Virus record (IMG/VR): IMGVR_UViG_3300034137_000032
Coordinates: 23,309-87,308 of that record
Strand: one strand, 5' to 3'
Length of the DNA: 64,000 bases
From: a virus
Positions 17,384 to 20,456 of the stretch are shown piece after piece. The translations under genes were made by a program, and so were the position numbers. Position 1 is the stretch's first letter. Every line of letters begins with the position of its first letter. The notes under the pieces are model-generated. The model had not been told where the DNA came from. It did no database searches and saw nothing but the letters and a program-made list of their open reading frames with translations.

Positions 17384-17411
17384 TTTAAACATAATCGCCG
17401 TTACTTGCCGT
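17384..17411 (-). other. dif/Xer-like recombination site (left)
   Basis: Minus strand ACGGCAAGTAA-CGGCGA-TTATGTTTAAA: 11-6-11 layout with a XerD-like arm. Confidence 0.5.
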
Positions 17412-17747
17412 CGTGATCGAAGCCTTCGCCGTATTTATTCGCGCCGAACCCAGCGCCGCTGGAGCAGCACTGTTCCAGTAAGCCTGCAGCGCAGCGGGCC
17501 GATCGCTGATTTCAGCTTGCAGGCTATCTGCCACGAGCTGAGTTATATGCTACTACCTCTGGTTTTGGCATACCTAACTTTTGATATTTCAGAGGGTTTT
17601 TATATATCAATATTTACTAAGGCCGCTGCTTATACGAAGATTTAGCTATTTTTTTGCACTATAATGGTGTAAGAGAAGTTTGTAGGTGCATTATTATTGA
17701 TATTCTAGAAGATACAAAATTCACAATTACTGTAGTTGGGAGGATAT

Positions 17748-18911
17748 ATGTCGGAAATTTCTGCTTCAGACCATATGAATAGCCTTTTAGCCACAAAATC
17801 ACTTGTAATTTACACCGGAACTATAACTACAGATGTTATCGTGTATCAGGATGTACCATTGCTTGGCAAAATTCCTGTTGTGACAAAGGTTACAACCCGA
17901 CACGATTCCTCAGGTTTTTCTAAGGTTGTGAATTCAAAAGTTATAGAAGTTCTCGATTTGAAATTTGATCAGGCTAATATCACAAGCCTTCCACAAACAG
18001 GTCTTTTAACAAGAAAAACAGTTCAGAACTGCGCAGATGCGAGTGTTACTTCAAGCATCGGACTCAGCGTGACCGGCACCCAAACTTGGGGTGTTACAAA
18101 AACAAACGGTGTTACCACTACTATTGGTGCCAGCGTGAATGCGTCAGTCGGGGTTCAAGGAGTTGGCAGTGCCGGCATGACCCTTACATTTTCACAGGCA
18201 ATCAGCACGACAACCGCTATGTCAGAGGGTGGTTCTCAGCAAGTAAGTCGAACCTCAAACGAAAATATAACGATAGGGCCAAGACGATCTGTGCTCATCG
18301 AACTTTTTGCATATCAATCAACTGCGGAGATACCATTTTCGGGAAAGATAGTGATCGATGGTAATCTAGAAAATAATCTAAGTGGAGTTACTCAAGCTAG
18401 CGATCTTTTGAGTTTATCGGAACGTACGCTCCCATTTTCGGGTATATTGCGGCTTTCGGATGTATCACAAGCTAATTTGCGGACATCTGACCTTGGTGGA
18501 GTACAAGGATGCGCCGTCCCAAACTCGATTTCGATTGCTGAAGAAAGGTTTCCACCTTTTCCCGCCGACAAGCTTGGTTCTTATTTGCTCGATCGTTTCA
18601 AAGCTCCGGTTGACTTTGCTCGTTCTGAAAGTGGAGAGATACATGACCATATAGGTAAGTTTTCAAATTTCACTTGGCTCGGGGAAAACGAAGGGCCAAC
18701 AATTGGCCCATCTGATGGTACGTCGTATGAAATACTGTACACCACTGAAATTTATGAGCCATCCGCAGCATGTGGTTTCAACGACTTGGGGGTAATGAAT
18801 ACGGGAATATTCAGTTTGGAGGCTCGTCAATACCGAAATTATTCTAATGGACAACTTGTAAGTCAATGGCAAGACACCGTAAAGAATTTCCTTAGATGCC
18901 ACGAGGTATGA
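17748..18911 (+). CDS. aerolysin/ETX-MTX2-family beta pore-forming protein
   Basis: Ser/Thr-rich strands, alternating hairpin TIGASVNASVGVQGVGSAGMTLTFS, then ITIGPRRSV...IPFSG; GGAGGA RBS; AT-rich DNA. Confidence 0.75.
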   Translation: MSEISASDHMNSLLATKSLVIYTGTITTDVIVYQDVPLLGKIPVVTKVTTRHDSSGFSKVVNSKVIEVLDLKFDQANITSLPQTGLLTRKTVQNCADASVTSSIGLSVTGTQTWGVTKTNGVTTTIGASVNASVGVQGVGSAGMTLTFSQAISTTTAMSEGGSQQVSRTSNENITIGPRRSVLIELFAYQSTAEIPFSGKIVIDGNLENNLSGVTQASDLLSLSERTLPFSGILRLSDVSQANLRTSDLGGVQGCAVPNSISIAEERFPPFPADKLGSYLLDRFKAPVDFARSESGEIHDHIGKFSNFTWLGENEGPTIGPSDGTSYEILYTTEIYEPSAACGFNDLGVMNTGIFSLEARQYRNYSNGQLVSQWQDTVKNFLRCHEV

Positions 18912-18959
18912 TATTTCTTAGAGTTATGTTCTATTGGATATTGAATGCCGCACATATTC

Positions 18960-19350
18960 TTAATGCTATAAGCTTGGATAAGCCAATCAGCATTTTGATC
19001 CCAGCCGCCAGAGCCCGCCGGCGCGCCATCGCATCCGCGTTGGCCTGTGGCAGCGCGTACTGAGTTGCCTAGTGCCCGTCCGATCGGTTGAAACAGCGAC
19101 CCTTCGGTCGTCCTGGAGCCCGGTTTCCAAAAGAAACACATTCAGGTACAGCCACGCCTTGGACGAAGCCCGCCGGCACCTGCGCCGGGTGCTTCGCTTG
19201 AGCAAGCCAAACTAGCTGCCAAGAAACCGCCAGTTTCGCCGGCGCGCGCCTGTTCGACACCCACCGGCACCCCTCGGCTCTGCGTTACTCGGTGTTGTGG
19301 AATGGCCAGAACTGCAGCGGCAGCCCCGCAATGCTCCGTCGTATCGACAT
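18960..19350 (-). pseudogene. possible decayed gene remnant
   Basis: Short protein-like stretches in alternating minus frames, no intact ORF. Confidence 0.25.
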
Positions 19351-19393
19351 GGAAGTTGAGCAGCTGCCCTTACCGAAAACCACGCCTACTAAA

Positions 19394-20296
19394 TCAACTA
19401 CGCGATTGGTATTTTTCAAAATACTGTCCAGCCAATTTTTGTGCTTCCGTTAGCTCGGACTGGGATAGCTTTTTGGCCATCATGTCTCGATATTCTCTCG
19501 CTTTGGGATCTCCATTGGCAGCAGCGACCGATAACCAAATATAAGATTGCTTGTTGTCTTGGGGGATACCTTTGCCTAGGCCGTAAGCGACTCCAAGATC
19601 AAGTTGGCCATCAGCAGAGCCTTGCTCGGCGGCCTTGCGGAACCAGAAGACCGCTTGTTTGGAATCTTGCGGAACGCCATTACCGCGGTTATAGCAGAGC
19701 CCGAGGTTGTTCTGAGCAGTAGCATGGCCTTGCTCGGCGGCCTTGCGGTACCAGAACGCCGCTTGCGTGGAATCTTGCGGAACGCCATCACCGGTGTCAT
19801 AGCTGATCCCGAGGTTGAACTGAGCTTTAGCTTCGCCTTGCTCGCCGGCCTTGCGGAACCAGAACACCGCTTGCTTCGCGTCCTGAGCAACACCTTCGCC
19901 TTCCACATACATGCTGCCGAGACTGAGCTGGGCAACAGCAAGGCCTTGTTCGGCGGCCTTGCGGATCCAGAAGACCGCTTGCTTGGAATCTTCAACAGTG
20001 CCCTTGCCGTCGGCGTAACTTAATCCTAGGAGGAGTTGGGCTTCAGCTTCGCCTTGCTCGGCGGCCTTGCGGTACCAGAACACCGCTTGCTTGGAATCTT
20101 GCGCAACGCCATTACCGGTGTCATAGCTGAGTCCGAGGTTAAGCTGATTTGTGGCTTCGCCCTGTTTAGCCATTCTCCGAATTTCTGTTAGATCCTGATC
20201 GGCATGCGCATAGCTGGCTGACTGAAGCAACCCGAACACAAGAAATAACGAGCAAACGTATGCCCTACATTGTTTTCTTTCGATGAATCCGATCAC
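19394..20296 (-). CDS. secreted Sel1-like repeat protein
   Basis: Signal peptide (AYAHA) and six 36-aa repeats AQxxLGxxYxxGxGVxQDxKQAVFWxRKAAEQG. Confidence 0.92.
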   Translation of the reverse strand: MIGFIERKQCRAYVCSLFLVFGLLQSASYAHADQDLTEIRRMAKQGEATNQLNLGLSYDTGNGVAQDSKQAVFWYRKAAEQGEAEAQLLLGLSYADGKGTVEDSKQAVFWIRKAAEQGLAVAQLSLGSMYVEGEGVAQDAKQAVFWFRKAGEQGEAKAQFNLGISYDTGDGVPQDSTQAAFWYRKAAEQGHATAQNNLGLCYNRGNGVPQDSKQAVFWFRKAAEQGSADGQLDLGVAYGLGKGIPQDNKQSYIWLSVAAANGDPKAREYRDMMAKKLSQSELTEAQKLAGQYFEKYQSRS

Positions 20297-20428
20297 TTCC
20301 CTGCGCTCACTTCGTTCAAAGGAGTTGAGTTTAACGGATAAGGCGAAATTGCGCTGAGCTTATGGCCAAGCGACATTCACTGGCTTTTCAGATCCTTACG
20401 ATTGATCTATTAAGGCGTGACGGTGAGG

Positions 20429-20456
20429 ATTGGACATAATCGCGGTTACCCATAAC
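20429..20456 (-). other. dif/Xer-like recombination site (right)
   Basis: Minus strand GTTATGGGTAA-CCGCGA-TTATGTCCAAT; core shares 15/16 nt with the left site. Confidence 0.55.

Follow-up and report, generated by a model that had tools for sequence, protein, structure and literature searches.

We analysed a locus in a Pseudomonas virus at which two 28-bp dif-like sites bracket a gene for a Sel1-repeat protein and a gene for an aerolysin-family pore-forming protein. The locus lies in a window of 64,000 nucleotides, which is the whole stretch under study (positions 23,309 to 87,308 of IMG/VR virus record IMGVR_UViG_3300034137_000032), and the source record has 87,308 bp and a completeness of 99%. 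A DarA virion gene, an RPA-family initiator and a ParA-like ATPase occur together in this one record, which places it among P1-like phage-plasmids; the label holds because the RPA-family replication initiator and the ParA-like ATPase are encoded. The relatives of the small genes of this phage are from Pseudomonas throughout. Our principal interpretation, to which we assign a probability of roughly 0.6, is that the segment 17412-20428 was inserted by site-specific, tyrosine-recombinase-mediated recombination at a dif-like site 3' of a gene for a 72-amino-acid (aa) protein, and that it subsequently decayed.

Read along the minus strand, the locus begins with the 72-aa gene (20678-20460), which is followed by site 2 (20429-20456), the Sel1 gene with its promoter/leader (20296-19394 and 20297-20428, respectively) and a patch rich in guanine plus cytosine (GC). 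Beyond this patch come the opposite-strand gene of the aerolysin family (17748-18911), 134 nt of GC-rich orphan DNA that extends from site 1 to the low-GC toxin segment (17412-17545) and for which a homologue search was empty, site 1 (17384-17411), a gap of 57 nt, and darA (13992-17327, minus strand), a backbone gene that encodes a DarA-like head protein with InPase and DarA_N domains. The possibility that the orphan stretch is the end of a further 72-aa gene, or the 3' end of the recombinase gene described below, was set aside when similarity to either was not found.

Two dif-like sites

On the minus strand, site 1 reads ACGGCAAGTAA-CGGCGA-TTATGTTTAAA and lies just upstream of the darA start codon, and site 2 reads GTTATGGGTAA-CCGCGA-TTATGTCCAAT and lies 3 nt past the stop codon of the 72-aa gene. 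A preliminary description of this DNA had placed such sites at both edges of an atypical segment, and the letters at these positions are exactly those it gave: the two spacers differ by a single base, and the pair brackets the low-GC stretch. Both sites have the build of Xer sites, which consists of two 11-nt arms around a 6-nt spacer (11-6-11), with inner arm ends ..GTAA and TTATG... The XerD-like arms of the same description were likewise confirmed, with the right arm of each site matching TTATGTTAAAT, the XerD arm of the Pseudomonas chromosomal dif, at 9 of 11 positions. The XerC-side arms match host dif at 5-6 of 11 positions (4.4 and 8.3 bits), and other members of the site family reach 9 of 11, e.g., GTTACGCATAA. 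Site 1 combines a good XerD-type right arm with a degenerate left arm (arm scores 4.4/3.6/13.8), and site 2 corresponds in position to the conserved site family described below.

Using a position matrix built from 10 sites in other replicons, with the window sites left out, we found that the two best scores in the genome are those of site 1 (21.8 bits) and site 2 (20.4 bits), and the next candidate scores 12.8 bits. Among 400 locally shuffled genomes, the probability of a maximum of at least 20.4 bits was 0.005, and the second-best score reached this value in none. A dif-template scan of the 87 kb returned sites 1 and 2 as the only 11-6-11 dif-type sites. The 16-mer common to both sites is present in 2 copies in the window and none elsewhere (expected 0.07), and the whole 87-kb genome held no further copy at up to 2 mismatches, which indicates that the motif is not a dispersed operator. 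In IMG/VR, the exact 16-mer core has 26 matches, of which 0 extend into the right arm, and this count fits chance (an estimate of tens). The two sites in the phage are beyond chance.

The preliminary description also proposed a third arm, TTACCGAAAAC (19370-19380, plus strand), as a sign that cassettes were added in tandem. These letters are present, but their use as a tandem-cassette marker does not hold, as about 0.76 such 9/11 matches are expected per 3 kb when both strands are counted; the half-site scores 7 bits, has no adjoining spacer or partner arm, and was dropped as part of the system. The 9-nt direct repeats TGCCACGAG at the edges of the toxin segment are also at chance level. Searches of Rfam gave no family match at the sites, and promoter and terminator scans added nothing.

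The site-family left arm GTTAYNNRTAAC is a near-palindrome in which the final C is also the first base of the spacer (window 20445-20456, plus strand; loci L076, L077 and L079), and the left arm in the window is the exact reverse complement of the gene-sense arm in those three loci. This arm might be a binding site for a second protein.

Homology breakpoints and the wider site family

The 250-nt flanks of the sites were compared by BLAST, which replaced global-alignment identity, a measure that was uninformative given a shuffled baseline of ~0.6. The left flank of site 2, i.e., the tail of the 72-aa gene, has as its sole match the left flank of a site in the chromosome of Pseudomonas genome G277, with 89% identity over the last 45 nt and homology stopping 3 nt before the site. 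The right flank, which holds the Sel1 promoter/leader, has as its sole match the right flank of site 7820 in the P. fragi plasmid pAd12 (80%, 139 nt, E 3e-33), with homology starting at the site. Neither cross match, of the left flank to pAd12 or of the right flank to G277, appeared in the flank BLAST. This reciprocal one-sided homology therefore marks site 2 as a junction between two lineages, as would be the case for a crossover site. Homology that ends at the site is thus found against both pAd12 and G277, with the pAd12 comparison showing the same module in different replicons. Comparison with plasmids bears out DNA exchange at such sites, and as judged from these alignments the locus is a gene-capture spot.

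The G277 site itself (contig C12, L089:6692-6719, minus strand) reads ACTGCGAATAA-CGGGAC-CTATGTTCAAT, which combines the left arm of pAd12 site 7820 with the right arm of pAd12 site 3332, and it looks like an unoccupied target. Between this site and a second one, G277 carries a one-gene cargo that encodes a 212-aa protein, the N-terminus of which resembles a signal peptide by eye.

The 72-aa gene of the phage (20460-20678, minus strand) belongs to a family carried by Pseudomonas plasmids of 5-340 kb, chromosomes and viral contigs, and an 11-6-11 site lies directly 3' of its stop codon in many members. These sites fall into type A (..ATAA-CGCCGY-TTATGTTCAAW; L006, L034, L040, L044 and L047) and type B (..TAA-CGNNNN-WTTCGTTMAAT; L035, L046, L076, L080, L081 and L083), and their cores occur in 31 and 10 IMG/VR contigs, respectively, against estimated expectations of ~1 and 3.5. 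The chromosomal dif, nnTACGCATAA-TGTATA-TTATGTTAAAT, was found as a single copy in 4 of 5 Pseudomonas genomes searched. The arms of the family are nearly those of chromosomal dif, with 9-10 of 11 positions matching in both arms of the best members, and the difference lies in the GC-rich spacer: on the family matrix, chromosomal dif receives 18.6-24.6 bits, with the loss confined to the spacer. The same relation, in which arms are near-identical and the spacer differs, holds between dif and the sites cer, psi and pdif (PMC5357621). Some small replicons carry one strong site, namely the 4958-bp plasmid L034, the 2844-bp high-coverage contig L044 and L047, and none of the three matches any of six tyrosine-recombinase queries.

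The predicted structure of the 72-aa protein consists of a beta-alpha-beta-beta core, which is confidently modelled (predicted local distance difference test score of about 90), and a hypervariable, disordered C-terminal tail, the end of which lies just ahead of the site. No Pfam match was found for the protein, and no PDB match for its predicted fold. Its constant place beside the site suggests that the protein may have a role in recombination. In a viral contig (L005:10217-10846), the 72-aa gene is followed by a left-arm-only site, a DUF2513 gene and the first 69 codons of a pAd12-type recombinase, an arrangement that represents another decayed insertion at the same spot.

Pairs or arrays of sites in the same direction were found at eight further loci, and the second sites, which had no part in matrix training, are always co-oriented with the first. 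In seven of these loci (L040, L046, L077, L078, L079, L082 and L089), the DNA between co-oriented sites measures 0.3-1.9 kb. The 72-aa gene itself lies between the sites of L040 (1214 and 1822), 1.8 kb that includes a C-terminal recombinase relic separates those of L046 (8202 and 10064), and one 212-aa gene lies between those of L089 (7566 and 6692). In L077/78, L079 and L082, a left-arm-only site follows the 72-aa gene and a full site lies 0.3-0.6 kb further on. Plasmid pAd12 has an array of four sites, all co-oriented (9897, 8598, 7820 and 3332). The cargo of site-bounded loci consists mostly of small uncharacterised proteins, and many of the short cassettes are without a recombinase gene. 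Taken together, the match of the arms to dif, the breakpoints at site 2 and the co-oriented pairs that bracket cargo in other Pseudomonas elements uphold the earlier proposal of an acquisition locus at dif/Xer-type sites.

Cargo, proposed history and competing explanations

The cargo is a decayed copy of a module found in pAd12. In that plasmid (L066, minus sense), the module between sites 7820 and 3332 comprises a TPR/Sel1 gene, the opposite-strand genes orf259 and orf230, a DUF2513 gene and a gene for a 320-aa recombinase. The domains of this recombinase, SAM-like and catalytic, give it an Xer build, and its score on the XerC/XerD models, 100 bits, falls below their cut-offs. The cargo of the phage is colinear with this module. 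The Sel1-repeat protein (19394-20296, minus strand; 300 aa, six Sel1 repeats) shares 58% identity with its TPR/Sel1 counterpart in pAd12 and has an N-terminus that resembles a signal peptide by eye. Next to it lie frameshifted pseudogene fragments that correspond to residues of about 61-156 of the 259-aa hypothetical protein Orf259 (19150-19351, plus strand), which in its intact form in pAd12 is encoded convergently with the TPR gene. A third piece (18982-19116, minus strand) corresponds to residues 223-266 of the pAd12-type Xer-like tyrosine recombinase and contains an in-frame stop, so the earlier statement that no recombinase is encoded nearby was wrong with respect to this pseudogene fragment. 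Relative to pAd12, ~2.2 kb between the orf259 and recombinase relics is deleted, and the low-GC toxin segment stands in place of the recombinase 3' end and the expected end-site. In a further genome, G002 (contig C34), this module recurs with an intact recombinase and a different gene in place of Sel1, and lies between a strong site at 6315 and a weak site at 1243. At the recombinase end, the sites of pAd12, G002 and the window all pair a good right arm with a degenerate left one.

The gene for the aerolysin-family beta-barrel pore-forming protein (17748-18911, plus strand; 387 aa) lies in a stretch of 35-46% GC. Its nearest relatives are 57-58% identical, one of them from P. fluorescens, and homologues that could serve as a guide to flanking sites were not found in plasmids, IMG/VR or 400 Pseudomonas genomes. 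The gene lacks a site of its own and apparently replaced the recombinase end of an older module, and the claim that the pore-former was itself loaded through the sites is not supported.

Some further observations concern these genes. Within the Sel1 gene, five 108-nt tandem repeat units (19485-20164) are 60-78% alike, and it is within these Sel1 repeats, at 19727-20080, that the source run's public assembly is interrupted. The orf230 and orf259 pair, for which no Pfam or NCBIfam family match was found, adjoins Xer-like recombinase genes in several Pseudomonas genomes (L056, L060-L062, L064, L123, L125 and L066:4917-6432).

We propose the following history. The resident target would have been a dif-like 11-6-11 site just 3' of the conserved 72-aa gene, and a circular module of the pAd12 type would have recombined with it through the module's own site to leave two co-oriented hybrid sites. 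Site 2 would then consist of the resident left arm and the right arm of the module, and site 1, beside the darA promoter, of the module's degenerate left arm and the resident right arm. In later decay, the ~2.2-kb deletion would have fused the remnant of the recombinase to that of orf259, and a low-GC segment with the aerolysin-family gene would have displaced the 3' end of the recombinase gene. In this account we infer the enzyme, the circular intermediate, the sequence in which decay proceeded, and that site 1 arose as the other junction of this one insertion. The cargo is probably now locked in because the left arm of site 1 is poor, the spacers are one base apart and the module recombinase is dead. 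For a dif module to be excised, its sites must lie in direct orientation and have spacers that are nearly identical (PMC13141974, PMC6449649), and both hold at this locus.

Several observations weigh against this history. The preliminary description had named related phage-plasmids with an empty site or different cargo at the darA junction as a check, and none was found, in a comparison that did not include 85-95 kb contigs with close 72-aa homologues. A megablast search with 15500-22500 as the query returned no useful match among phages or plasmids. The DarA relatives in IMG/VR and the 400 Pseudomonas genomes are distant (39-55%) and have neither the 72-aa gene nor the sites, and darA is never near the relatives of the 72-aa gene. 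Since no relative has an empty site or other cargo, site 1 is without a comparative breakpoint, and the case for it draws on statistics, orientation, position and analogy. A second check, for the same sites around homologues of the cargo, was positive for the site-bounded Sel1/TPR module of pAd12 and negative for the toxin, the homologues of which were not found. The only public run with this DNA is the source sample, which is kept as contigs: these held no excision joint or empty site, although contigs cannot show rare forms, and their read depth is even across both sites (16.8 and 14.9). The 134 nt beside site 1 and the toxin segment are foreign to the pAd12 module, with no site before the recombinase relic; the inter-site region is therefore not one clean module. 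Lastly, the window sites score ~21 bits compared to 30-42 bits for the family, with the poor XerC-side arms noted above.

The reaction was presumably of the Xer family, and the enzyme may have been the module's own Xer-like recombinase, alone or together with a host Xer protein, for which we consider the chances to be even; host XerC and XerD acting alone are a possible but somewhat less probable source of the activity. The preliminary description had proposed host XerCD. The dif-like arms agree with this proposal, whereas the module carried its own Xer-like recombinase and a second family, of 486-aa tyrosine integrases, lies beside the same type of site. Members of this family are 86-94% alike, and their genes, which lie to the right of type-A sites, always converge on the site. 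About ten loci have such a gene at 0.1-1.2 kb, and for L128, L129, L137, L139, L141, L142, L147, L155 and L077 the range is about 0.1-1.6 kb. Identity between the right flanks of these loci is 80-90%, whereas their left flanks are unrelated, an arrangement that resembles either an integrative element or an integron-like platform with use of the same family of sites. Neither the pAd12-type recombinase nor the 486-aa integrase is intact in the phage. Its sole intact tyrosine recombinase is a 328-aa protein of the phrog_1 integrase group (G000:C1:18598-19581), which is encoded outside the window, 21 kb away, and is unrelated to the plasmid recombinases; it could be the resolution or integration enzyme of the replicon. 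A separate sequence, GTTATGCCGGTTATGTTAGGT, at window 52065-52085 (minus strand), shows partial likeness to the site arms and lies in an intergenic gap near the ParA-like gene (about 50991-51374).

Among other explanations, an ordinary integrated islet, in which the sites are attL and attR of an element integrase descended from Xer and host Xer is uninvolved, is a minority possibility. A recombinase gene indeed lies beside one end-site in pAd12 and G002:C34, relics of one persist in the window, L005 and L046, and the conserved right and unrelated left flanks of the 486-aa integrase (int128) loci resemble an attL junction. However, the module-side left arms in the window, pAd12 and G002:C34 share almost nothing, and there is therefore no specific binding site for a module integrase. 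Most site-bearing loci, moreover, are without a recombinase within the flanks examined, and descent alone would not keep the best family members at 9-10 of 11 matches to host dif in both arms.

It is unlikely, in our assessment, that host XerC and XerD alone loaded recombinase-less modules into a cer/psi-like multimer-resolution site next to the 72-aa gene. Such a role would suit arms that nearly equal those of host dif around another spacer, as in cer, psi and pdif, as well as the single strong sites of L034, L044 and L047, the many short cassettes without a recombinase gene, and the RPA replicon and ParA of the phage. It does not account for the relic of a module-borne Xer-like recombinase in the cargo and its intact copies at the module end in pAd12 and G002:C34, nor for the fixed place of the 486-aa integrases beside type-A sites at about 10 loci, and the left arms in the window are poor XerC sites. 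Furthermore, the DarA-phage relatives have no such site, which is therefore not a resolution site of the backbone. The site had been described as the dimer-resolution site of the phage-plasmid, and this designation is not supported, given those relatives and the phage's own tyrosine recombinase.

We consider it quite improbable that site 1 is a look-alike, such that only site 2 is real, the cargo arrived through illegitimate or homologous recombination, and the 16/17-nt repeat is coincidental or a shared regulatory motif. The missing comparative breakpoint, the degenerate left arm and the adjoining toxin segment, which has no link to the pAd12 module, would fit this view. Against it, chance predicts about 1e-4 occurrences, within 10 kb of any one site, of a 16-mer that differs at 1 position at most, the independent matrix ranks site 1 first with two sites in 0/400 shuffles, no further copies point to a dispersed operator, and the orientation of site 1 and its position at the island edge fit the pattern of co-oriented pairs. 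A transcription-termination or 3'-untranslated-region element in place of a recombination site is very improbable: in 37 viral-contig instances and in small plasmids, the site does lie between the stop codon and a T-run hairpin, GGCCCCCAC, and the A-run of the right arm could be the A-tract of a two-way terminator, but no such hairpin follows either window site, no Rfam family matches, and dif-like arms, homology breakpoints and co-oriented arrays would be left unexplained.

Relation to known systems and implications

Insertion at a dif-like site, as we propose for this locus, has its nearest known counterparts in the pdif-bounded dif modules of Acinetobacter plasmids and in the elements that exploit Xer, which are treated below. 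The dif modules and the present system share 28-bp 11-6-11 sites with arms like those of host dif and a plasmid-specific spacer, accessory genes between the sites, and modules found in more than one replicon with homology that breaks at the site (PMC13141974, PMC6449649). They differ in that the system described here is found in Pseudomonas, has a tailed P1-like phage-plasmid as a carrier, and uses GC-rich spacers. In addition, its sites are co-oriented (window, L040, L046, L077-79, L082, L089 and pAd12) rather than alternating as C/D-D/C, often lie between the 72-aa gene and a terminator, and in some modules accompany an Xer-like recombinase of the module's own (intact in pAd12 and G002:C34, a fragment in the window).

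Integrative mobile elements that exploit Xer (IMEXs), such as CTXphi, VGJphi, TLCphi and the gonococcal genetic island, also insert at a dif-type site and leave two co-oriented hybrid sites, one of them weakened. In these elements, the degenerate element-derived arm hinders excision (PMC5357621, PMC6744903). Unlike in IMEXs, the target here is a site of a phage or plasmid, with spacers CGGCGA and CCGCGA as opposed to TGTATA in chromosomal dif, it is the XerC-side arm that is degenerate, the ancestor of the module carried a recombinase of its own, and the insert is not a phage.

The multimer-resolution sites cer and psi resemble the single Xer-type site that each of the small plasmids carries, and the sites of pAd12 and G002:C34 have TTATGGTAAAT as their right arm, which equals the XerD arm of cer. 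In contrast to cer and psi, which have an accessory-sequence architecture (PepA/ArgR/ArcA), the sites here also serve as insertion points. A likeness to integrons lies in the tyrosine recombinase gene beside one conserved site with unrelated DNA opposite, at about 10 loci, and in short one-gene units between co-oriented sites. However, the sites are duplex dif-like 28-mers and not folded attC, the recombinase gene converges on the site, and the recombinases score 33-57 bits on the integron-integrase model, for which the cut-off is 265.

Among the papers searched, none dealt with such sites in Pseudomonas plasmids or phage-plasmids. The shuffling of genes bounded by Xer sites is documented mainly in Acinetobacter plasmids and a few elements at chromosomal dif, and the present case concerns a Pseudomonas tailed phage-plasmid, a carrier for which both plasmid replication and DNA packaging are possible. 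With the phage-plasmid as a site of module exchange, the predicted-secreted Sel1 protein and the aerolysin-family pore-former would therefore be exchangeable with ordinary plasmids. Substrates for comparison are at hand in the occupied module of pAd12, the empty-looking target in another genome and the single sites on plasmids of 3-5 kb. More broadly, we tentatively raise the idea, which we hold to be less probable than its alternatives, that a single system of dif-derived docking sites with GC-rich spacers extends across Pseudomonas plasmids, islands and phages, served by host XerCD and at least two families of element tyrosine recombinases, with the 72-aa protein as an accessory or activation factor. 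If this were true, small and conjugative plasmids, chromosomal islands, temperate phages and a P1-like phage-plasmid would all carry docking sites onto which modules are loaded in the same orientation.

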